Of a stretch of DNA of 64,000 bases, positions 1,310-38,781 are shown in pieces. The translations under genes and the position numbers were made by a program. The notes under the pieces were generated by a model. That model saw only the letters and a list, made by a program, of their open reading frames with translations. It was not told the DNA's origin and made no database searches. The DNA is from a bacterium (GTDB lineage Bacteria; Patescibacteriota; UBA1384; 2-12-FULL-50-11): contig JAJTYJ010000002.1 of assembly GCA_021463485.1 (NCBI GenBank), forward strand, positions 32,673 to 96,672. Reading direction: 5' to 3'. Within the stretch, counting starts at the first letter, position 1; every line of letters begins with the position of its first letter.

Positions 1310-1403
1310 TTTCCCCTCTTTATATTATTAGCCTAATGGCGTGTTGAGTTAGTGTCAAATATAACGCGTTGATACTTTGACCGGTTGCCGATACACTGGC
1401 TCC

Positions 1404-2681
1404 ATGCATAAAACCTACCCAACTCACACGTTCGAAAACGGAATGAAACTGGTCGAGATACATATTCCGTCTTTTCACACAGTCACAAACTTTTTAGTAA
1501 TTCGAAGCGGTTCACGCTACGAAACAGCCGCAAATAACGGCATCGCCCACTTTCTTGAACACATGGTTTTTAAAGGAACTAAGTCGTTCCATTCTTCAAA
1601 AGAAATTGCCGAGGCGATCGAGGGAATCGGCGGCTACTTCAACGCTTGGACCTCCAACGACCACACCGCCTACTGGAACGTTGTGCCGCACGATCAATAT
1701 CAACGGGGCATCAAAGTAGCATGTGAGTTGGCGTTTACGCCTCAGCTTAATTCAGACGATTTAGAGCGAGAGCGCGGTGTGATTATCGAGGAGATTCGTC
1801 GGATGCAAGACGACCCTGCTAGCTTAGTCGACGATCTGCTCGGTGGCGTGGTCTTTCAAAATCACAGCCTCGGTCAATCCGTAATTGGAACAGAAGAGAC
1901 AATCCGAGCGATGACGATCGAGCAGTTTCGAGAGTATCACAGCGATCACTACGCGCCGAGCCAGGCGTACTTTGTCTGTGTCGGAAACCTCGAAGGTAAG
2001 GACGTTAAAAGCGCCGTTTGGGAACAGATTCAAGAGTTAAAACCAACAACGGTCAGTCAGCCAGAGCTATTCACCGGTAACAGCACAAAAGCGGTGAAGG
2101 TTTTAACAAAAAACACCGACCAGACGCACTTTATGCTCGCTACCGCGACAAGCTCATTTGGGCTGGGATCAAAAGATCGATTTGTCGGCACCGTTTTAAA
2201 CGCCGTTTTGGGACGCGGAATGAGTTCACGCCTCTTTTTGAATATCCGCGAGAAGAAAGGGCTGGCTTACGCCATCAACTCCTCGTTCTATCCGTTCGAG
2301 GATACCGGGTTAATCTCGATTTACGGCGGTGTAAACACTGAAAAGGTTAATCAAACGCTCGATGCACTTACTGAAGAATTTGAAAAGTTAATAAACGAGC
2401 CGGTCGGTTCTGATGAGTTAAGCAAGGCCAAAGCCCAACTCGTTGGATCGTACGATCTCTCCGCCGATCGACCGGTTGATTTAGCTACTTGGTACGGAAC
2501 CAGCGCACTACTTGGGGCAAAAGAAAGTTTCGAAGAAGCGAAGTCTTTAGTCCAGGCCGTTACTGCTTCACAAATTCAAGAGCTGGCGAGTAATGTTTTC
2601 AGTAAAGAGCGTTTAGCGATGGCGGTAGTCGGCCCGTACGACAGCGATCAGATCTTTGCGGATTTCCTCTCGAAGCAGTAA
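1404..2681 (+). CDS. M16 family zinc metallopeptidase (insulinase/pitrilysin-like)
   Basis: Inverted zincin motif GIAHFLEHMVFKGT (HxxEH) near the N-terminus; size about 425 aa. The track ORF begins at TTG 1377; the first ATG is at 1404. Confidence 0.8.
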   Translation: MHKTYPTHTFENGMKLVEIHIPSFHTVTNFLVIRSGSRYETAANNGIAHFLEHMVFKGTKSFHSSKEIAEAIEGIGGYFNAWTSNDHTAYWNVVPHDQYQRGIKVACELAFTPQLNSDDLERERGVIIEEIRRMQDDPASLVDDLLGGVVFQNHSLGQSVIGTEETIRAMTIEQFREYHSDHYAPSQAYFVCVGNLEGKDVKSAVWEQIQELKPTTVSQPELFTGNSTKAVKVLTKNTDQTHFMLATATSSFGLGSKDRFVGTVLNAVLGRGMSSRLFLNIREKKGLAYAINSSFYPFEDTGLISIYGGVNTEKVNQTLDALTEEFEKLINEPVGSDELSKAKAQLVGSYDLSADRPVDLATWYGTSALLGAKESFEEAKSLVQAVTASQIQELASNVFSKERLAMAVVGPYDSDQIFADFLSKQ

Positions 2682-29643: not shown

Positions 29644-30255
29644 TTACTGGTCGAGTAGCCTTAAAACTTGTCGAACATTCTTACGAACGCTCAACTGGCC
29701 GTTGATGTGATGAAGAGTTGGGAAGTGTTTGCACACTTTACGGTATTGCTCATAGGAGCGAAGGATACTCTCATAGTCCTCAATAGTTGCTGGCAGTCCA
29801 TATGTGCTTCTTCTTTTTGCTCGTTCTATTACTCGACGAGCACATAGCACTGGGTCAGCCATAAATAAGAATATCTCTGAGGGGACAATAGCGCCCGCGC
29901 ACTCGTTCGCTGATAGTATTGCCTCCGGCTGTTGACCATCAAACGACTGGTAAACCATGCTAGTCCAAACAGATCGATCAAAGATGACTATGTTACTTGC
30001 AGAAATTTTGTCTGCTAGGCTAGCGTGAACCTCGGCTCTACATTCAGCAATCTCCTTCACCTTCCTAGCTGTGAATAGCTTTTCTTCGTGCGGAAGATTG
30101 TGCCAAGCAGAGATGTACGAGCGAAGAGGTTCGTGCTCTTTCTCGTTAATTCGTAGGATGTTCAAGCCCCTTTTGTCTAGTATTGATGATACTATCCTGC
30201 AACACGTGGTCTTCCCGGCGCCACTGACGCCCTCAAATGCGATTATTCTCGGCAT
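29644..30255 (-). CDS. thymidylate kinase-like P-loop nucleotide kinase
   Basis: Walker A IAFEGVSGAGKTT. Tmk-like blocks LFTARKVKEIAECRAEVHASL, IVIFDRSVWTSMVYQ and ADPVLCARRVIERAKR. Island-type codon usage (AGA/AGG/ATA/CTA). Confidence 0.7.
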   Translation of the reverse strand: MPRIIAFEGVSGAGKTTCCRIVSSILDKRGLNILRINEKEHEPLRSYISAWHNLPHEEKLFTARKVKEIAECRAEVHASLADKISASNIVIFDRSVWTSMVYQSFDGQQPEAILSANECAGAIVPSEIFLFMADPVLCARRVIERAKRRSTYGLPATIEDYESILRSYEQYRKVCKHFPTLHHINGQLSVRKNVRQVLRLLDQ

Positions 30256-30258
30256 ATA

Positions 30259-30849
30259 TTACCTCTTAAGGTGCAGAGTGTCGTTTTGAGTTATTACGTC
30301 AAAGCGACCATCGCTCAATAATATTTCTGTAATTGAGCAATGGTCGATTTGATTAGAGAAAATTGCATCTTGTGCGCTTTGCCCACGCAGCTGCCCAATT
30401 AGCAATTTAATAAATGCGCCGTGACCAACGACAAGTAAATCTCTAGCGTTCTCACTGGTTAAAATTGCTAAGAACTCTCTTATTCTTTGCTGAACATCAC
30501 TAATACTCTCCCCACCTGGGGGCTTTCTCGTCTCAAAGTCTCCAGCAAGTTTGTCCCATACTACTTCCCCAAACTTCTTTCCTTTAAATTCTCCAGCGTC
30601 TTTTTCTCTGAGGAGCTTTAAATACCGAATTATGTGCGTTCTTCCAGAAAGAAGGTATTTAGCTGTTTCCCTAGTTCTTGCCAGATCACTTACCAGTGCC
30701 TTATCAAACCGATACTTGTCAAGGCGTCTTCTCAACATCCTTACTTGCTCTTTGCCTTCAGCAGTAAAGCCGCCGTAGCTATGTCCGTGAAAGACTCGAT
30801 CTCTGTTTTCAACAGTTTCTGCGTGACGAACAATTATTATCCGCATCAT
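30259..30849 (-). CDS. histidine phosphatase superfamily (phosphoglycerate mutase-like) protein
   Basis: N-terminal RHAET catalytic motif (IIIVRHAETVENRDRVFHGHSYGGFTAEGKEQ) and a distal VVGHGAFI His. Confidence 0.8.
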   Translation of the reverse strand: MMRIIIVRHAETVENRDRVFHGHSYGGFTAEGKEQVRMLRRRLDKYRFDKALVSDLARTRETAKYLLSGRTHIIRYLKLLREKDAGEFKGKKFGEVVWDKLAGDFETRKPPGGESISDVQQRIREFLAILTSENARDLLVVGHGAFIKLLIGQLRGQSAQDAIFSNQIDHCSITEILLSDGRFDVITQNDTLHLKR

Positions 30850-32240
30850 ACTTGGAAATTGGTTTGAGAGTTACCAGCGCTCTTCGCTATCCTAGCCAAC
30901 TGTTTGTAGCGCTCATCTATTTTTGAATTCAATATCAAGCGCAAGGTTTGTTTTGAGGTGTGTGGGTGCTGAGCGACTAGCTTAAGTATGTAGCCGTACT
31001 CCATTTTCCCAAGAACGAATTCAGTAATGCTATGAATAATTGACTGTGGAAGATCATTCAAGCTCAACATACTTGCCATGAATTCCCAGCTCCACTGTTT
31101 TTGTTTACTAATAGACTGTAGTAACTTTTGCGAGTCAATCTTTTCTCCGATCAGCCATAAATTGGCCAGAATAATTTCTGGGCGGTTGTCGGTAAGCGGT
31201 TTAAGAAGTTTGTTCTTTGCAGCTTGCTGCCTTGCTCGTATTATCAGCTTTCCTCTATAGCCAAAGTTTTCAGTAATAAAACCATTCACCAACTTTTCCT
31301 TTATTTTTGCGATTGTACGCATTGAATCGGTAAATTTGTAGAAAGAGCTGTCTGGGAAAAGGTGCCGAATTGTTGTCGATTTTTGTAGTGATTGTAAGTT
31401 AGTTTCTATAAGCGATAGCCCATTATAATCAGTACCTTTATTAATTTTGAGCGCTTCAGAACGCAGCAACATTACGTTTGAAATTGAGCGTAACAGTTTT
31501 TCATACTCTGATCTGTTTACACTTCCATGTTCAAAAAGTAGGGATAGTGAGTTTGTGATACTAATCGGGGGTTGTATCCCTACACTGGTTGCAGTGTGCC
31601 GTGCGATCCAAATAAAAAATAATATGTCCCTCGTTCCGCCAGCCGAGTATTTAACATTAATATAACCGTTTTTTCTTCTCTTTGAGTAGTAATAGTCATA
31701 GCAAAACAGCTGAAAAAGAATGTTTCGCTTGGACCGTTCTAGTGTATTTTGCTTCTTCACCATAGCCCTAAAACTCTTAATCAAGCTTGGATCACCGCAC
31801 ACAATTTTAGACTCGAGTATTTGGTTGCCTTCGACAATGTTGGTTGAGCAAATCTTTGACAGCAGCCTGATTGTCCCCCAATCTGGTATATCAACCTTCG
31901 AATAGCCGAACTTGGCCATCTCGATAGAGAACTGCTTCCTAAACTCTCTTTCTTGTGTCGATTCGCTTCCTGTAATAATTAGGACATCTGCGTCCGAATA
32001 TGCTGCCATTTCCTGACGACCCGCAGAGCCATATATACCTACAGCGACCCTACACTCTGGGAATTTGGCGTAAAGCGAGTAGTAAATGTGTTCAACAGTC
32101 AAGCGGAAGTTTAATGAGTAGTATTTTGCTAATTCGAGACCAACGTATTGGCTCTGAGGAATGATATCCGAGTCTCTCAGAAAAACCGACTGTAATATAT
32201 GGCCGTCTATTCTTTTTTTGGAATCAAATTTCTGTTTCAT
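30846..32240 (-). CDS. GlnD/GlnE-type nucleotidyltransferase domain protein (DUF294-like NTase + substrate-binding region) with C-terminal unknown region
   Basis: Pol-beta NTase signature VAVGIYGSAGRQEMAAYSDADVLII (hG[GS]...D.D). Downstream KYSAGGTRDILFFIWIARH matches the conserved GlnD/GlnE K..GGxRDIEF block. 464 aa. Confidence 0.65.
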   Translation of the reverse strand: MKQKFDSKKRIDGHILQSVFLRDSDIIPQSQYVGLELAKYYSLNFRLTVEHIYYSLYAKFPECRVAVGIYGSAGRQEMAAYSDADVLIITGSESTQEREFRKQFSIEMAKFGYSKVDIPDWGTIRLLSKICSTNIVEGNQILESKIVCGDPSLIKSFRAMVKKQNTLERSKRNILFQLFCYDYYYSKRRKNGYINVKYSAGGTRDILFFIWIARHTATSVGIQPPISITNSLSLLFEHGSVNRSEYEKLLRSISNVMLLRSEALKINKGTDYNGLSLIETNLQSLQKSTTIRHLFPDSSFYKFTDSMRTIAKIKEKLVNGFITENFGYRGKLIIRARQQAAKNKLLKPLTDNRPEIILANLWLIGEKIDSQKLLQSISKQKQWSWEFMASMLSLNDLPQSIIHSITEFVLGKMEYGYILKLVAQHPHTSKQTLRLILNSKIDERYKQLARIAKSAGNSQTNFQV

Positions 32241-32375
32241 CTAGGACATTTTCGAGTGTAAGATGCAACTGGATCCATACTCTTGCGGTACTGTTCCGGT
32301 ATAGATTTAGTTGGGCGAACTCCTGGATGATCGTGCTGCCAGGAAGGAAACTTCCTGAGTACCTTACAGGAGACT

Positions 32376-32459
32376 ATGATGAATTGCCCGAATTGCGATG
32401 AAGAGATGATAGAGGATGACGACGGTTGGGTTTGCCCAAACTGTGGCTACGAAGAGTAA
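32376..32459 (+). CDS. 27-aa zinc-ribbon micro-ORF (MMNCPNCDEEMIEDDDGWVCPNCGYEE)
   Basis: ATG 32376 is preceded by GGAG at a spacing of about 8 nt. Two CPNC (CxxC) motifs 16 residues apart; highly acidic. Below the ORF-track size cut-off. Confidence 0.4.
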   Translation: MMNCPNCDEEMIEDDDGWVCPNCGYEE

Positions 32460-32504
32460 CCAGCTTGGTCGCTGGTGGATACGGCGACCAAGTATAATTA
32501 TTAT

Positions 32505-32897
32505 ATGCAACCTATAAGATATAAATATGGAGAACATAGGCAGGCTTTTTTGGCCGGGCAGCTGGTTGTATATGCGTTATTAATTAGAAACAGAACAAGA
32601 GACATCGCATGTCTAGACACTGGACTTAATAGAAACGATATTAGTAACGGAGGCTTTGTAGAGCTAAAGCAACTTGCTAAGGGGTATGGCTGTGAAGTTG
32701 CATTGAGTAAGCATGGCGAAGACAGATACTTACTACATGTCTACAGGAAAGACGCCGCAGAAAAGATGCGGGAAATGGATAGGGTTATACAGAGTTATCG
32801 CAGCGGGAAATTGTCCCGAGAAAGTTACGTCTGCCGCACTGGGGAAATATACGGCTATCCAGGTGAATCGATTAAATGGTTTCTCAAGAAAAAGTAA
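32505..32897 (+). CDS. hypothetical protein (~130 aa)
   Basis: ORF with island-type codon usage and no recognisable motif. An alternative GTG start is at 32475. Confidence 0.35.
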   Translation: MQPIRYKYGEHRQAFLAGQLVVYALLIRNRTRDIACLDTGLNRNDISNGGFVELKQLAKGYGCEVALSKHGEDRYLLHVYRKDAAEKMREMDRVIQSYRSGKLSRESYVCRTGEIYGYPGESIKWFLKKK

Positions 32898-32919
32898 TGA
32901 TTTCTATTTTTCCTAATTA

Positions 32920-34089
32920 ATGACTGAAATTCATTTTGTAAGGCTACCTCGAAAAAGCAATGAAGTATTTATTCGCGTTTTTACCAATGCGGGCCGGGAT
33001 AGCGAGAATAGGGATAATCAAGGGATTGGTCACCTACTTGACCACTATATAAACGGCGGGATTTTTCAGAAACATTACAATCTGGATACTAACGCATACA
33101 TCGATAGGGACTTTCTGTGGTTCTCGCTGAATACGACAAAGAAAAAACTTTTTAAGCAGTTGGAAAATTTTTTGCTATATGTCACTAAGCCAGATTTTAC
33201 TCAAGAGGAATTGCTGAATTTCGAGAAGCAGGCGTTAATCAACGAAATGAAATCCAGTGAAGCGGTGTTATACAACAAGCTATTTCAAGGTGTGGTCACG
33301 AAAACGCTCGCACATTATAGTAGTGTTTATAGGGAGATCGAGAATGTGCCTAGGTTTCAGCTTGGTGAGCTTGCACAGTACCATCGGGGGATAATAAATC
33401 AAGGCCCAGTCACGGTTATAGTCGGATATAACGGTTTGTCAAAAAAAGATCGACACCACATCTCTTCTTTGGTTAGCAGTAACTTTCCAGATAATTCTAA
33501 AAGTGTCATTCCTAGTTTCGTGACAGTTGGACCTCGCATTGAAAGTGTTGAGGAATTACCAAGTGATGCTAAGGGACAAGTACTAATTTACTTGGCGATG
33601 AAAACGTTTGGGTACTGCGATGAAAGAGAGAAGAGAATAGCCGTAAACCTTGCACTGCGTGAGCTGCGTGGACATTCAAAACACAGTCCGTTCCTTATGT
33701 TACGAAAGTTAGGTGTCTACTCGTTGGATTACAATCACTGGATAGGCCTTAGTTATGGGCAAGCCGTTATATCAATTGTATGTATGCCTCATGTGGTTGA
33801 TGAAGCGACAAATATACTAATGAGCTCGCTGAAGCATTTATCAGAGATGGGGTTGTCTAAGGCTGTAATAGAAAAGCATAAGAGAAGAAATAGTGAATAT
33901 TTTAAACAAATACAACAGAACAATGGTGAGTACTTCAGTAACGCACTAGACGATATTTTATACGAAGGCAAAGAGTTGAATTACAAGGAACATATGATTA
34001 GTTTCAAAAATATCACGCCAGAGATGACCAGAAGGATATATTCTGAGATATTCGCACCAAGCAACCTTTCAAAAATTATTTATAAGTAA
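32920..34089 (+). CDS. M16-family peptidase homolog with variant zinc motif (HxxDH)
   Basis: GIGHLLDHYINGG aligns with the GIAHFLEHMVFKGT of the canonical M16 gene at 1404, but the Glu is replaced by Asp. 389 aa, matching the single-domain M16 size. Confidence 0.55.
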   Translation: MTEIHFVRLPRKSNEVFIRVFTNAGRDSENRDNQGIGHLLDHYINGGIFQKHYNLDTNAYIDRDFLWFSLNTTKKKLFKQLENFLLYVTKPDFTQEELLNFEKQALINEMKSSEAVLYNKLFQGVVTKTLAHYSSVYREIENVPRFQLGELAQYHRGIINQGPVTVIVGYNGLSKKDRHHISSLVSSNFPDNSKSVIPSFVTVGPRIESVEELPSDAKGQVLIYLAMKTFGYCDEREKRIAVNLALRELRGHSKHSPFLMLRKLGVYSLDYNHWIGLSYGQAVISIVCMPHVVDEATNILMSSLKHLSEMGLSKAVIEKHKRRNSEYFKQIQQNNGEYFSNALDDILYEGKELNYKEHMISFKNITPEMTRRIYSEIFAPSNLSKIIYK

Positions 34090-34094
34090 TTGTA

Positions 34095-35474
34095 CTAATT
34101 GGAGTGTCTTTCCAGGTAGCTTAGCCTCCATGCTAAGTCGTGGATTGCTTCTTTCTTTAACGCAATGAAAGCGTTTCTGGATGTAGCTGTATAGTCGCTC
34201 ATCGACTCAATTCTAAATAACGGCTTTCGTGTTTGGTTCTCGCCGGCGAGTATCTTCATCGGGTACCCGTCGAACCCCAACTCCCAAAGAATCTGACCCT
34301 CCTCAGCACTGTCGAGCGCCAACATCTTAAGCATTTGATACTTCAGATTCTGCTTCGTGCGCCTTGGGTAATCTGACTGTTTAAAGTATTCGATCGCTTC
34401 ACGAACAATAGCCTGGGCTGCGTCTACTAATTTTCCATTATTGGCAGCTTGTTTCGTCATTTTAAATTTAGTTAGAGGATTTACTTCTAGCTTTTCTGGT
34501 ACATGAAAATCTTTTATTAAGTTGCTGACGTCCGAATCTGTAATTAGTGAGAATCCTTTTCCGGTGTTATATAGTAAGTCCCTTAAGAAAGTTGTGAACC
34601 AATCATAGAAGCTGTGAGAGAAGATATAAAAGAACACAAATGCACCAAGTATTGCTTGAGCGTTTCGACCCATTTCAGGAATAATATGTTGGCTGAAAAC
34701 CATAGCTGGTAATAATGTTATTAAGGCAATCGCGCAAGACAAGTAGATAAACTCTTTAATTTCAAACAACCCCTCAATGTCGGAGATTAGGCCATAGTAG
34801 AAAATCGACACTGCAATAAAAAATACAGGCACAATAAGCAGGGGTGAGGTTGAGTAGACGGCGAGGAAGTAGTTGTCGGTTTGATATACATAGACTAAAA
34901 ACAACCCTGAAATAATGTAGAGCACAGAGGCAATGATGGGTAATAAAAACTTAGTTCTCCTTCGACTATCATTCTCTTTACTGCGCGCAGTTATGTAGGT
35001 GTAGAGTGATACAGACATAGCCCACACCACGATTAGCGCTATTGCATTAAACAACGGACCCCTCTTGTAAAACTCACCAAAACTCTCGTCTGAAATTAAT
35101 AGGGAGCTGTAGTCTATAACTAGATTTGAAGTACTGGAGAGTATTATGAGCAGAATAGCGATGGAATATATAAACCATAATTGTATCCAAATGGATTTTT
35201 TGTAATTCTGTGTTACTAGTAAAGCAAAATGGAGCAGCAGGGGGATGGGCAAGATGTATGACCAATTCGTAAGATGGTACAGGAATATTGAGGTGAGCTG
35301 GTCATCTGTGAAAAGAGGGGTAATCGCATCCACGACGAGTATGTACCAACTCAAACTAAAAAGAAAAAAGAAAATCACCCAAGCAGTTTTGCTCCGTATA
35401 TTCCTACTAACCAAGTAAACACCAACCCAAAACAAAAAAGCACTAACGATAAACTGGAACCAGAATAGAGACAT
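34095..35474 (-). CDS. 7TM receptor-like membrane protein (HisKA_7TM-like N-terminal domain) with ~170-aa cytoplasmic C-terminal domain of unknown function
   Basis: About 7-8 TM helices. The N-terminal LVSRNIRSKTAWVIFF resembles the FSNPIAAVNRVFGLL of the adjacent kinase's sensor. The C-terminal soluble domain has no kinase motifs. Confidence 0.55.
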   Translation of the reverse strand: MSLFWFQFIVSAFLFWVGVYLVSRNIRSKTAWVIFFFLFSLSWYILVVDAITPLFTDDQLTSIFLYHLTNWSYILPIPLLLHFALLVTQNYKKSIWIQLWFIYSIAILLIILSSTSNLVIDYSSLLISDESFGEFYKRGPLFNAIALIVVWAMSVSLYTYITARSKENDSRRRTKFLLPIIASVLYIISGLFLVYVYQTDNYFLAVYSTSPLLIVPVFFIAVSIFYYGLISDIEGLFEIKEFIYLSCAIALITLLPAMVFSQHIIPEMGRNAQAILGAFVFFYIFSHSFYDWFTTFLRDLLYNTGKGFSLITDSDVSNLIKDFHVPEKLEVNPLTKFKMTKQAANNGKLVDAAQAIVREAIEYFKQSDYPRRTKQNLKYQMLKMLALDSAEEGQILWELGFDGYPMKILAGENQTRKPLFRIESMSDYTATSRNAFIALKKEAIHDLAWRLSYLERHSN

Positions 35475-35497
35475 TTCTTATATAACTTATAGTAATT

Positions 35498-36508
35498 ATG
35501 TTACTTTTATATCATATGGCAGAAAGAATTAACGAAAATACCGCTGGTGAGGCAGTTTTTAATCCTATAGACCAGGATTTCTTAGGAGAGTCATACCCGG
35601 AGATTTTAAAGGATAAAAACTCAGCTACACGTGTAGGAGGTGATGAATTTGAGAAGCCAGCCTCGATCTTTGGACTCCGGATTCTATTTATTTGGATAAT
35701 TACAGTGATCACAGCAACCAAGAAAGGTTTTTTGGGAAAGAATTTAAAGACCAACAGTTTTTGGTTTGACGGTATTAGCCAAATTTGTCGTGACGTTAAA
35801 GATAATGCTTATAGCTGGAGGGCACTAGAGATAATATACAACCTGCCTAACTACCTCTCTAAAAAAATGTCACTTGATAGAATCGCTCTTTATTGGAATG
35901 GTCTTGAAAATGCTAAGGCTGTTAGAAACAGGTTAAGATTAACAAAAGAAATCCTCAGTAGAGAAATTGTAAAAAGAAAATCACAAGATACGATACGATT
36001 ACTATCGATAGCCAGCGGATCTGCCCGTGCGGTATTAGAAACACTGGCTGAGGTCGTTGATAAACATCAGGTTAGTTTCGAGTTTAGACTCCTTGATCTC
36101 GATCCTACTGCGTCCGTTTATGCACAAAACTTAGCAACCGAGCTAGGCGTTGCTAATCGCTGCAAAATGATAGTGGGGAGTACGACTGATATGAAAAAAC
36201 TTCTAGGCAACTATAGACCAGATATTATCGAGATGGTAGGGTTTCTTGAATATAGAAATAGAGAGAAGGCAGTTAACCTACTAAAGAAGATAAAAGAATT
36301 ACTTGCACCAGGCGGGAGTATTATTTTTAGTCAGGTTAAACCAAATAGAGAAATGTATTTTCTAAGATTCGTAATGAATTGGCCGATGATTTACAGAACT
36401 GAGGAGGAGTTCAGGAAGATCCTTGTTGAGAGCGGCTATTATGATTACGAATTAGTGTCTGAGCCAATAGGAATACATATGGTTTGCAGCTTTCGTAAAG
36501 AAGGTTAA
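35498..36508 (+). CDS. class I SAM-dependent methyltransferase
   Basis: LLSIASGSARAVLE (motif I-like) and LAPGGSIIFSQV (post-I/II). Stop TAA overlaps the ATG of the kinase (TAATG). A possible alternative start is at 35516. Confidence 0.65.
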   Translation: MLLLYHMAERINENTAGEAVFNPIDQDFLGESYPEILKDKNSATRVGGDEFEKPASIFGLRILFIWIITVITATKKGFLGKNLKTNSFWFDGISQICRDVKDNAYSWRALEIIYNLPNYLSKKMSLDRIALYWNGLENAKAVRNRLRLTKEILSREIVKRKSQDTIRLLSIASGSARAVLETLAEVVDKHQVSFEFRLLDLDPTASVYAQNLATELGVANRCKMIVGSTTDMKKLLGNYRPDIIEMVGFLEYRNREKAVNLLKKIKELLAPGGSIIFSQVKPNREMYFLRFVMNWPMIYRTEEEFRKILVESGYYDYELVSEPIGIHMVCSFRKEG

Positions 36509-38781
36509 TGCAACAACTCATCGCGTTTACAGGGTTGATTATAGCAGTTGCAAGCCTAGCCCTAGGAGGACTAGTAGTATTCAGTAACCCAATCGCTGCT
36601 GTGAATAGGGTGTTTGGTCTTTTGGGTCTCTCACTTGCAGTGTGGGGATTCGGTTACTATAACTCCTTCTCGGCCACCGACCCGATCGCTGCACTTTTTT
36701 GGGCAAAAGTATTCATGTTGGGGGCTGCGTTCATTCCAGTCTTCTACTTGCATTTTGTTGTACTATTTATAAATAGATATCCAAAGTTTAAATTTTCGAT
36801 TGTATCTGGTTATATTCTTTCTACAACATTTGCCTATGCAAGCCTGGTTTCCGAAAACTTTATATCTCGAGTCGCCCCAAATAGGTGGTTCACTTTCTGG
36901 CCAATAGCTGGTGATTTTTATATATATTTTCTTGTTTTCTTCTTTGCTGCCCTTGTTTTCTCCATTTACTTATTATCAAGAAAGTCGGGGTTAAAAGCGG
37001 TAGATTTACTGCAGGAAAAGTATCTAATTATTGGGGCGACCGTAGGGTTGTTGGGCGGGGCAACAAACTATCCTCAGTGGTATGGCATCGATATACCACC
37101 AGTTGGTAACATACTTGTTCTTGCTTTTCCGGTTTCTATTACATATGCGATCTTAAAAACCAGATTATTCAACATAAAGGTATTGCTAACAGAAGTTGCA
37201 GTTGGCGCTGTGGTTTCTATTGCCTTGGTCCAGACTATTGCGCTTTCAGGTAGCCAATTAGTCACAGGGGGCCTCCTGACTTTATCACTTGCGGTCGGCG
37301 GAATTGTTCTAATTAAATCGGTTCGGACGGAAGTTGATAAAAGGGAAGAAATAGAGAAGTTAGCGAAGGAAAAAATCGAAACTCTTAAAGAGCTTGAGCA
37401 ACGCAATAAAAGCTTAGCAGCGTTGCAGCGCGTATCTGATATCGTCCTGAATGAGATGGATATGAAGGCGATGTCGCAGAAAATTCTCGACGAAATCCCT
37501 GTTCAACTAGAAAACTGCGTTGGCGCCTTCCTTTCGATCGTCCGCGGCGGTCACCTTGTCGCCTATACCGTCTCGACCAACACCTTTACCCGCAAAGTTT
37601 ACTCACTGGTAGGCGAAGATTTAGAGAAATATAGCTACCCAATAAAGAAGGAGTTTAACGGTCTACACGAGGTGCTCATCGAAAAAAGGATGGTCGAGGG
37701 TGACAGTCTGGATGCGTTTATCTGCCCGCCGATTAGTCGTCCGGTGGCGAAAACGCTACAGCGCTTGATCGGAGCCAAACATTTAGTAGCGCTGCCGCTC
37801 TATGCCAGCGGCGAGCCGCTTGGGGTAATGATGTTTGTTTATAAGGTCGAGAAAAGTCGGCTCCACGGGAAAGACGTGGAGATCGCTAAGGCGATCGCCG
37901 ACGACATGAGCTTGGCGATTCAACGCGCTCAGGCGTTCCAAAAGCTTAAAGACGCTAACGAATACCTTAGCCAATTAGACAAGATGAAGGACGAGTTTAT
38001 CTCGATGGCTTCGCACGAGCTCAATACGCCGTTAGCAGCGATCGAAGGCTATCTTTCGATGGTTCTCGACGAGGGGATGGGGAAAGTCGACGCTAAAAGC
38101 AAAGAGTATCTATCTCGGGCGTACGCCAGTAGTAAGCGTCTGGCTGAGCTGATTCTCGACCTTTTGAACGTCTCCCGAATCGAGCAGGGTCGTTTGAAGA
38201 TGAAGTTTTCCCAGGTAAGTATGGTTGAGCTAGCGGAGAGCGTAGTACATGAGTTACAGATTAAAGCTGATAGTAAAAAGATTTATTTGAAGATCGAAGC
38301 GGAAAAAGGCTTGCCAAAACTCTGGTGCGATCCCGACCGCATCCGTGAAGTAATCGTTAATCTAACCGGTAACGCGTTAAAATTCACCGACAAAGGCGGA
38401 GTTACAATCAGCATCGGTAAATCCGAGGGCGGTTTTATCCGGGTAACAGTTGTCGACACCGGTCGCGGTATCGCCAAGGAAGATCAAAAGAAGCTTTTCC
38501 AGAAGTTCTCTCAGGTTAAGCGTGAGATCGACGAACACCAGGGAACCGGACTCGGTCTGTATATCAGCAAGAACTTCGTGGAGTTGCACAAGGGTAAGAT
38601 TTGGGTCGAGAGCGAAGCGGGCAAGGGCTCGAAGTTTATCTTTGAGATTCCGCTATTGAAAGAAGCGCCGAAACAGCTTGAAGGGGCAATCTTAGAGAAG
38701 CCAATTACCGAAGCGCAAATTGAAGTCGGCACCAAAGACGTACCGACAATTATCGCCGAATCAGTAGACGGTAAAATTTAA
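36508..38781 (+). CDS. sensor histidine kinase (7TM sensor + GAF-like + HisKA + HATPase_c)
   Basis: N-terminal 7 TM helices. H-box ISMASHELNTPL, N-box NLTGNALKFT, G1 DTGRGI, G2 GTGLGL. Confidence 0.85.
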   Translation: MQQLIAFTGLIIAVASLALGGLVVFSNPIAAVNRVFGLLGLSLAVWGFGYYNSFSATDPIAALFWAKVFMLGAAFIPVFYLHFVVLFINRYPKFKFSIVSGYILSTTFAYASLVSENFISRVAPNRWFTFWPIAGDFYIYFLVFFFAALVFSIYLLSRKSGLKAVDLLQEKYLIIGATVGLLGGATNYPQWYGIDIPPVGNILVLAFPVSITYAILKTRLFNIKVLLTEVAVGAVVSIALVQTIALSGSQLVTGGLLTLSLAVGGIVLIKSVRTEVDKREEIEKLAKEKIETLKELEQRNKSLAALQRVSDIVLNEMDMKAMSQKILDEIPVQLENCVGAFLSIVRGGHLVAYTVSTNTFTRKVYSLVGEDLEKYSYPIKKEFNGLHEVLIEKRMVEGDSLDAFICPPISRPVAKTLQRLIGAKHLVALPLYASGEPLGVMMFVYKVEKSRLHGKDVEIAKAIADDMSLAIQRAQAFQKLKDANEYLSQLDKMKDEFISMASHELNTPLAAIEGYLSMVLDEGMGKVDAKSKEYLSRAYASSKRLAELILDLLNVSRIEQGRLKMKFSQVSMVELAESVVHELQIKADSKKIYLKIEAEKGLPKLWCDPDRIREVIVNLTGNALKFTDKGGVTISIGKSEGGFIRVTVVDTGRGIAKEDQKKLFQKFSQVKREIDEHQGTGLGLYISKNFVELHKGKIWVESEAGKGSKFIFEIPLLKEAPKQLEGAILEKPITEAQIEVGTKDVPTIIAESVDGKI

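Follow-up and report, generated by a model that had tools for sequence, protein, structure and literature searches.

The window analysed here is a stretch of 64,000 nucleotides (nt) from a Patescibacteriota genome (GenBank assembly GCA_021463485.1, contig JAJTYJ010000002.1, positions 32,673 to 96,672 of the forward strand; position 1 is its first letter). Near its middle, a conserved non-coding leader (32271-32375, plus strand), detected with nhmmer and a covariance model and considered a candidate promoter or 5'-untranslated region, is followed on the same strand by a micro-open reading frame (micro-ORF, 32376-32459), an orphan gene (ORF130, 32505-32897) and the gene of an M16-like peptidase with an altered zinc motif (32920-34089). 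The genomic context was read for 12 lineages of relatives of this peptidase, and in 8 of them the leader and a same-strand small ORF lie directly upstream of the M16-like gene. The reading favoured here, to which we give a probability of roughly 45%, is that the conserved leader drives a swappable small-protein gene beside a probably active chamber peptidase, and that the small protein is likely the substrate or client of this enzyme. So far, the module has been seen in a single named genome of Patescibacteria and in a few uncultured contigs from metagenomes.

A small-ORF slot behind a conserved leader

The module was seen in the window (together with its relatives L006 and L008) and in the lineages L001, L002, L003, L005, L130, L133 and L136. 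Three types of small ORF fill the slot between leader and peptidase gene. Type A (L001, L002 and L133) is helical, follows the pattern ..DKxDAAxDTxSxxKDVxxAWHxARDDAQxxGxLPER.. and has a Ser-rich or acidic tail that ends in KK. Type B (L003, L005, L130 and L136) is rich in Gly, Ser, Asn and Gln (..GGNYGGGQSGGNQGGQ..) and ends in KK in three of the four cases. Type C (window and L006) is a putative zinc ribbon. The small ORFs of most relatives are 45-70 aa long, hydrophilic and of low complexity. An earlier note on this DNA, made from the letters alone, had tied a small upstream ORF to the M16-like gene. A conserved companion of this kind was indeed found in 8 of the 12 lineages; the zinc ribbon is not the conserved partner, since unrelated hydrophilic ORFs take its place elsewhere.

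These small genes are easily overlooked: gene callers mostly missed or mis-called the micro-ORF, the type A and type B ORFs and a 36-aa tail ORF described below. In L003 (1605-3071), the protein P0004 (469 aa) is an over-extended gene call that runs through the Gly-rich small-ORF region in another frame and joins this region to the peptidase. Pfam gave nothing for type A, for type B or for an unannotated 87-aa ORF of L002; no small ORF was present in a collection of 15 billion proteins, and no type A match was found among the PDB sequences. A literature search on BroJett034 and on Gly-rich small proteins of Patescibacteria found nothing.

Two comparisons show how the slot may have behaved over time. 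L001 and L003 have in common a DLH-type upstream neighbour, the leader and the hairpin, and their M16 proteins are visibly similar (not scored pairwise). Since the slot within this shared frame is filled by type A in L001 and by type B in L003, the small ORF has been exchanged. L133, in turn, belongs to P0011, a sister of the HLLDH forms that keeps HLLEH, and it also carries the leader and a small ORF, so the association of slot and peptidase appears, from this comparison, to be older than the Glu-to-Asp change. Outside this strain and L006, the zinc-ribbon micro-ORF was found only in L130 and L132, and a homolog with HxxEH (P0011, L133) likewise has leader and small ORF; the coupling of this particular peptide with the Asp-type enzyme, as the earlier note had drawn it, is therefore only half upheld.

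A terminator-like GC-rich hairpin trails the small ORF in L001, L002, L003, L005, L130, L133 and L136, as it does in the window, where a 12-bp stem lies directly 3' of the micro-ORF (32463-32493, plus strand). In a scan, the hairpins of the window and of L001 (5948-5970) were called terminator-like; their tails are mixed A/T (ATAATTATTA), with no clean T-runs, and the tails are weaker in L005 and L133. The M16-like peptidase genes have no Shine-Dalgarno (SD) sequence, and at several loci their ATG is preceded, at 5-8 nt, by a TATAAT-like hexamer. TATAAT, with no SD, stands 5-9 nt ahead of the start of ORF130 (window 32494-32504: TATAAT at 32494-32499 and TATTA at 32500-32504, then ATG at 32505, plus strand) and of the M16-like gene in L005 (about 700-715) and L133 (about 1541-1550). 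This suggests that ORF130 in the window and the M16-like genes of L005 and L133 may be read from leaderless mRNAs. In L004, in which no leader was found, the region upstream of the M16-like gene (2205-2681) encodes a 158-aa signal-peptide protein that is rich in Ser, Gly and Ala and has a C-terminal hydrophobic anchor.

The conserved leader

The leader extends over about 110 nt upstream of the small ORF. The leaders of L001, L002, L003, L005, L130 and L133 were matched by nhmmer with E=1e-22 to 1e-29 and scored 87-115 bits with the covariance model. Mean column identity is about 66% over about 110 nt, and the adjacent M16 proteins are only 25-45% identical. Its 3' half is built around the hairpin P2 (CAGGAAG-GAAA-CTTCCTG, 32340-32357, plus strand), which forms a helix of 7-10 bp in 8 of 8 leaders with one mismatch altogether. 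Stem positions 3 and 5-9 covary through compensatory changes, and the stem stands at a constant 21-26 nt from the start codon. In the alignment of seven leaders, 97% of the cells pair, compared with 31-45% when the partners are slid, and six pairs change on both sides. Helix 3 of this alignment, which belongs to P2, shows 100% pairing and 4 pairs in which both partners changed (slid controls, 31-45% paired); helix 2, in the region of the palindromic box P1 described below, reaches 95% pairing and has a single double change. The covariation score of the seven leaders was reached in 0 of 500 shuffles.

After the P2 hairpin comes an invariant box, GAGTACYTTAYAGGAG(G), in RNA letters GAGUACYUUAYAGGAG(G), which includes a strong SD. 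In the window it reads TGAGTACCTTACAGGAG (32356-32372, plus strand; SD GGAG at 32369-32372); the window contains no second match (chance expectation 0.01), and the box is kept in 7 leaders. The possibility that it encodes a conserved N-terminal peptide (LEYFTGG) was rejected: depending on the locus, it lies in frame 0, 1 or 2 with respect to the small ORF, and since it is read in all three frames it is non-coding.

The 5' half has the form TAC-N6-GGTAT.GAT ... GACAAT and contains a short palindromic box, hairpin P1 (TACTG-TTC-CGGTA, 32289-32301, plus strand), together with a -35-like TGGATA and a -10-like GACAAT. In the window, a -10-like hexamer (GATGAT, 32326-32331, plus strand) follows P1, and a -35-like hexamer is also located downstream of P1. 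The P1 motif TAC..GGTAT.GAT occurs in every full-length leader save the first copy of L002 (GGTGTAGAT), and twice more in L002 ahead of other genes. These two partial copies lie on the same contig (3281-3405 and 3788-3853): one has its own hairpin and precedes the unannotated 87-aa ORF, and the other consists of the 5' box only and precedes a glycosyltransferase operon. Recurrence of the 5' half before other genes fits a promoter or operator, and this is the role that we infer for it. Given the TGGATA/GACAAT pair, the transcript would begin at the foot of P2.

No Rfam family accounts for the leader. In a scan of the window with Rfam 15, two tRNAs only reached the gathering score, and the leaders of the window and of L001 gave nothing better than E=0.5 (none at E up to 10). 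A strict leader pattern, GCCARG-N8-30-YTGAGTACYTTAYAGGAG, was matched, among 185,579 genomes, only by L008 and by two loci, L007 (inside an ORF) and L009 (Belliella), that are apparently chance matches. A near-identical pattern without the leading Y had no match in the metagenome collection. A loose 17-mer was found at 120 loci, none of which has a full leader by nhmmer or covariance model; L038 gave a weak score of 24 bits. Just past the canonical M16 gene of the window, the minus strand holds a one-mismatch match to the palindromic box (GTACTAACGTGGTATCGAT, 2697-2715), which is probably due to chance (0.7 expected at two or fewer mismatches).

The zinc-ribbon micro-ORF and its portable cassette

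The slot of the window is occupied by a micro-ORF of 27 codons (32376-32459, plus strand; 26 aa from the second ATG) that encodes MMNCPNCDEEMIEDDDGWVCPNCGYEE. The GGAG lies 3 nt ahead of its first ATG and 6 nt ahead of the second. The peptide has two CPNC knuckles with 14 residues between them and is strongly acidic (Asp and Glu make up 9 of the 27 residues). Its best Pfam match is Zn_Ribbon_YjdM (25 bits, E=1.9e-5; cutoff 30.8), followed by Zn_ribbon_3 (23.8 bits; cutoff 27); scores below the cutoff are expected because the query has only 27 aa. Further sub-threshold zinc-ribbon matches are to HVO_2753-like and eS31 chains.

It is very improbable that this is a chance ORF and that only the leader and ORF130 matter. 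The micro-ORF is the sole ATG-started ORF of 20-60 aa with CxxC-N8-25-CxxC in the window. In composition-preserving shuffles, such ORFs have a mean of 0.11 per window and at least one was present in 21 of 200 shuffles, so that the pattern by itself, which appears in about 10% of shuffled windows, is only mildly unusual; the two known copies of the micro-ORF differ at 2 nt, too few for a test of selection. What makes the micro-ORF credible is its exact position behind the conserved leader and SD box: it starts 3 or 6 nt past the conserved SD, at the site where the small ORF starts in all other lineages with the module, and it stops just before a hairpin of the kind that trails small ORFs elsewhere. 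In addition, its zinc-ribbon profile matches reach E of about 1e-5.

The following gene, ORF130, starts at ATG 32505 (32505-32897, plus strand, 130 aa) or at GTG 32475, 15 nt past the micro-ORF stop (140 aa). No homologs were found outside its own 90% cluster. Searches in Pfam, NCBIfam and PHROGs gave nothing significant, and PHROGs returned sub-threshold zinc-ribbon noise only; nothing in these PHROGs matches suggests a phage origin. A single-sequence AlphaFold2 (AF2) model has a plausible fold (predicted local distance difference test score, pLDDT, 75.8), the best Foldseek match of which is 2guk (E=0.055, not significant). The earlier note had asked whether ORF130 may be PqqD-like or a recognition element (RRE) of a pathway for peptides that are made on the ribosome and modified after translation (RiPPs); Pfam, NCBIfam, PHROGs and Foldseek returned no such signal.

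In blastn, a segment of the window (32337-32903, plus strand) consisting of the 3' part of the leader, the micro-ORF, the hairpin and ORF130 matches L130 (7382-7947) and L132 with 95.4% identity over 567 bp. This is the only blastn similarity between these contigs and the window, and in L130 the match stops at the contig end. The micro-ORF copy is 96% identical (one synonymous change and I12V), and of 122 ORF130 codons compared with the L130 copy, 5 are changed synonymously and 7 non-synonymously. The GC content of L130 is 0.38, compared with 0.48 in the window. The M16-like gene of L130 and L132 (P0008) is 35% identical to that of the window and has its own leader and type B ORF upstream, and in L130 a second leader copy precedes the zinc-ribbon cassette. 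There, the cassette is convergent to the M16-like gene; the end of it that comes closest is the stop codon of the ORF130 homolog, 170 nt downstream of the M16 stop. Judged from these copies, the micro-ORF and ORF130 are a separable two-gene cassette whose members move together, which in the lineage of the window appears to have replaced the usual type A or type B gene at the shared leader. The same comparison shows amino-acid conservation of the micro-ORF outside the strain, though in the company of ORF130 as its partner. The zinc-ribbon micro-protein would then work with ORF130, and not as a RiPP precursor.

The M16-like peptidase

The peptidase gene (32920-34089, plus strand) encodes a protein of 389 aa, residues 35-47 of which are GIGHLLDHYINGG; the canonical M16 gene of the window (1377-2681) reads GIAHFLEHMVFKGT at the zinc motif. 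The positions of the micro-ORF (32376-32459), the next ORF (32475/32505-32897) and this gene, as well as the HxxDH in place of HxxEH, are as described in the earlier note. Pfam assigned the protein to M16 (28.2 bits, cutoff 22.3), with M16_C just below its threshold (20.2 bits, cutoff 23), and none of the NCBIfam models matched. The AF2 model, based on an alignment of 58 sequences, has a pLDDT of 95.3 and a predicted template modelling (TM) score of 0.92. In Foldseek it matched 3hdi, 5hxk, 7v4y, 1hr6 and bc1 core proteins with TM-scores of 0.75-0.83 (E=1e-21 to 1e-18), and the partners at a TM-score of about 0.8 are complete M16B subunits (BHP 3hdi, TTHA1264/1265, Sph2681/2682 and MPP). According to this model, the protein is a complete two-domain M16B subunit, i.e. 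half a clamshell, and not the single-domain homolog that had been supposed.

A word-indexed search of 5.8 billion proteins yielded six relatives, and an exhaustive profile search yielded 44 below E=1e-30. In M16 enzymes, the Glu of the motif acts as general base, the distal Glu provides the third ligand of the zinc and an R/Y pair completes the active site; BHP acts as a homodimer with all active-site elements in one chain (PMC12731061). The sole invariant columns among 58 family members are H38, H42 and E109, with E102 and Y267 nearly invariant. E102 and E109, on an E-x6-E helix about 70 residues downstream of the motif, align with the canonical M16 of the window. R262 is invariant among the closer relatives and in comparison with the canonical M16, and Y267 is likewise invariant in the close clade. 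HLLDH (D41 in the window protein) is found in place of HxxEH in the window protein and in P0001-6, 8, 9, 10, 12 and 14; other members have Glu, and the nearest relatives outside the Asp clade keep HLLEH. In a neighbour-joining tree, the Asp forms group together with the Glu-bearing P0011 as sister, and P0010 stands apart beside a Glu form. According to these alignments, Asp has become fixed in place of Glu in a small clade that branches from within HLLEH relatives.

This Asp is fixed across sequences that are only 31-45% identical. Since all residues of the site are kept except for this conservative replacement, which is fixed at such divergence, the pattern points to a site that is probably functional, with altered chemistry, and not to a decayed non-catalytic subunit. 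The intact zinc site and R/Y pair in a complete M16B subunit also speak against a role as non-catalytic partner, which the earlier note had put forward. A literature search on HxxDH variants of M16 found nothing.

Comparison with known systems

The closest structural counterparts are the homodimeric M16B proteins (BHP 3HDI, TTHA1264/1265 and Sph2681/2682), which have the same two-domain subunit fold as the window protein (TM-score 0.8). Like BHP, the latter carries the His-His-distal-Glu set in domain 1 and R/Y in domain 2 of one chain, and no signal peptide is evident by eye, as in homodimeric M16B proteins. It differs in being only 10-16% identical to the BHP-type proteins and about 30 residues shorter, in having Asp for the general-base Glu (HLLDH) throughout the clade, and in the leader-driven small ORF attached to it.

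A small, strongly translated ORF near an M16 gene is also found in PqqA/PqqF, in SboA with AlbE/AlbF and with the class III lanthipeptide M16B proteases. Unlike these peptide-maturing systems, the module has no conserved radical-SAM enzyme, lanthionine synthetase or other tailoring enzyme, its small ORFs have no shared leader/core motif, and it has a single M16 subunit instead of an AlbE/AlbF-type pair. The micro-ORF product itself resembles the zinc ribbons of HVO_2753-like proteins, eS31/S27ae and L32 in having two CxxC knuckles, 14 residues apart, in fewer than 30 aa, and its best matches, by profile and among PDB sequences, are to ribbons of this kind. In contrast to other small zinc-finger micro-proteins, it is strongly acidic and paired with an orphan 130-aa protein, and all the matches are below thresholds.

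Stem-loops at the 5' end that stabilise transcripts, and leaders that enhance translation, are known from ompA, ermC and aprE and from T7 gene 10 (epsilon ACUUUA plus SD). The leader resembles these in its stable hairpin 21-26 nt before the start, its unpaired A/U-rich box and its perfect SD. It differs from them in that the box is conserved far beyond what an SD needs and that the upstream palindromic box is conserved as well.

Proposed function and alternative explanations

In the favoured reading, the 5' half of the leader would serve as promoter or operator and P2 as a 5'-terminal stabiliser or translation element, and these elements together would give a high output of the small protein. 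The peptidase would be made at a low level, by read-through or from a leaderless mRNA, and would be a homodimeric, catalytically competent chamber enzyme that acts on short unstructured polypeptides. The short disordered products of the neighbouring gene would be natural candidates for an M16 chamber, and the neighbouring small protein would be the most likely substrate or client of the peptidase. Several points weigh against this proposal. Leader and small ORF were not found in 4 of the 12 lineages (L004, L134, L137 and L138), and the leader precedes other genes too, so it may mark a regulon and not a substrate-enzyme pair. The substrate-enzyme link is drawn from conserved adjacency only, and the proposal takes Asp as able to replace the general-base Glu in an M16 site. 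The covariation comes from 7-8 independent leaders only, with an alignment fitted to the model, and a consensus scan of the leader gave no strong sigma-70 promoter. Finally, most of the compared loci are Logan or ENA contigs without taxonomy.

Because the leader also precedes other genes, plain co-regulation is the main rival. The leader would then be the promoter or 5'-untranslated region of a small regulon (of small proteins induced by stress or host contact), the M16-like protein would be a housekeeping degrader of oligopeptides and the small proteins would not be its substrates. We regard this as a serious, if less favoured, possibility. It would explain the extra leader copies before the 87-aa ORF and the glycosyltransferase region of L002 and before the zinc-ribbon cassette of L130, the lack of homology between the small ORFs of different lineages and their absence from four of these; moreover, a terminator-like hairpin and -10-like hexamers lie close before the M16 start, which suggests that the transcription units are separate. 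Against it, the order and orientation of small ORF and M16-like gene persist while the other neighbours change and the peptidase diverges to 25-45% identity, and even the relocated zinc-ribbon cassette of L130 ends 170 nt from an M16-like gene. Doubtful, though compatible with either a substrate or a co-regulation function, is the view that the leader acts as a cis-regulatory RNA (riboswitch or thermometer) which senses a ligand or the temperature and so controls whether the small ORF is translated. Its nucleotides are conserved (about 66%) between lineages whose M16 proteins diverged to 25-45% identity, its helices covary, a segment upstream of the hairpin pairs with the SD box in the window and L001 (CTCCTG/CAGGAG and CCTGTAA/TTACAGG), and the fold of L001 has z=-5.2. 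However, P2 alone is robust and the folds of the other leaders are no better than those of shuffles (z=-0.6 to -2.0); L002, L003 and L005 show weak or no complementarity to the SD, a 5' half that lacks its 3' counterpart is found in L002, as would be expected of a promoter or operator, and no Rfam family matches.

The earlier note had viewed the locus as a possible RiPP cluster, with the micro-ORF as precursor, ORF130 as recognition or modifying protein and the M16 homolog as maturation protease. Hairpins between precursor and enzyme genes are present in the PQQ and subtilosin operons, and a small ORF with a strong SD, followed by an attenuating hairpin and then by enzymes, resembles the control of precursor/enzyme stoichiometry in RiPP operons. 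M16 proteins do mature peptide products (PqqF, AlbE/AlbF and class III lanthipeptide M16B proteases), and L006 has ThiF-like and FeeM-like genes 1.4 kb downstream. Nevertheless, this pathway is now highly unlikely. A precursor family with conserved leader and variable core was not found: the slot is filled by three unrelated peptide types, the only element conserved upstream is non-coding and the micro-ORF peptide looks like a generic four-Cys zinc ribbon. ORF130 is an orphan with no RRE or PqqD signal, no modifying enzyme around the module is conserved across the loci, the neighbouring genes differ in every locus, and the cassette of L130 faces the M16 gene in convergent orientation instead of lying upstream of it.

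A more far-reaching form of the substrate proposal, which we consider rather unlikely, is that episymbiotic Patescibacteria have, in leader, small ORF and HxxDH M16B enzyme, a dedicated system of substrate plus chamber peptidase. Mini-proteins that are abundant and disordered (or, in the window, the zinc-ribbon protein) would be made from the conserved slot and be processed or cleared by a cognate Asp-type M16 enzyme, and leader and hairpin would act as recombination handles for the swapping of cargo. If true, the locus would represent a modular small-protein system of a new kind, with a cis-regulatory RNA or promoter element that is new as well. By its sequence, the enzyme is a variant (HxxDH) of the known M16 family, and no description of the leader with its swappable small-ORF slot turned up in Rfam, Pfam, NCBIfam or the searchable literature. 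Patescibacteria have tiny genomes with many unannotated genes, in which a conserved non-coding element and a persistent gene pair are rare handles. The HxxDH clade is a natural test of Asp for the general-base Glu in an inverted-zincin site, and the swappable slot shows how micro-proteins can be exchanged between lineages at a conserved regulatory element. Although the RiPP idea is weakened, the locus yields a reproducible and testable module in a poorly understood phylum.

Genomic setting and neighbouring genes

The whole module lies inside a low-GC island of the window (30000-37000; 38-41% GC compared with 48% for the window). L008, the named genome (Patescibacteria group bacterium BroJett034, contig BOKZ01000001.1), matches the window in the stretch compared, and L006 is a relative that is about 98% identical (98.7%) and has the same type C small ORF. 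The divergent upstream neighbour (30846-32240, minus strand) encodes a 464-aa GlnD/DUF294-like nucleotidyltransferase with weak Pfam matches. Beyond it are a histidine phosphatase gene and a thymidylate-kinase-like gene, and the same trio is present in L006. Downstream of the module, L006 (5222-8294) has a FeeM-like acyltransferase and a ThiF-like enzyme, along with a sensor whose N-terminus differs, in exchange for window 34611-37348, i.e. for most of the membrane protein described next, a methyltransferase and the N-terminus of a kinase.

The gene convergent to the peptidase gene (34095-35474, minus strand) encodes a 459-aa protein with multiple transmembrane segments, of which a 47% identical homolog is found in the same position in L138 (1555-2940). 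A 561-aa convergent gene of L003 was rejected as a further homolog; only a short tail between it and the M16 gene is shared. This tail is the conserved C-terminal part of the 459-aa protein (about 40 aa, 34110-34229; KPLFRIESMSDYTATSRNAFIALKKEAIHDLAWRLSYLE), which also occurs as stand-alone ORFs of 36-54 aa right after the M16 stop in L001 (7167-7301), L003 (3086-3205) and L136 (1674-1794). The tail module is about 90% identical in amino acids, and the differences are mostly at third codon positions (e.g. 6, 2 and 24). It matched no family and looks like a helix-turn-helix by eye. In L136, the tail ORF loses its frame at a run of seven A (about 1717-1725), and with six A it would again read ..KKEAIHDLAWRLSYL; an assembly error, a pseudogene or a slippery site may be the reason.

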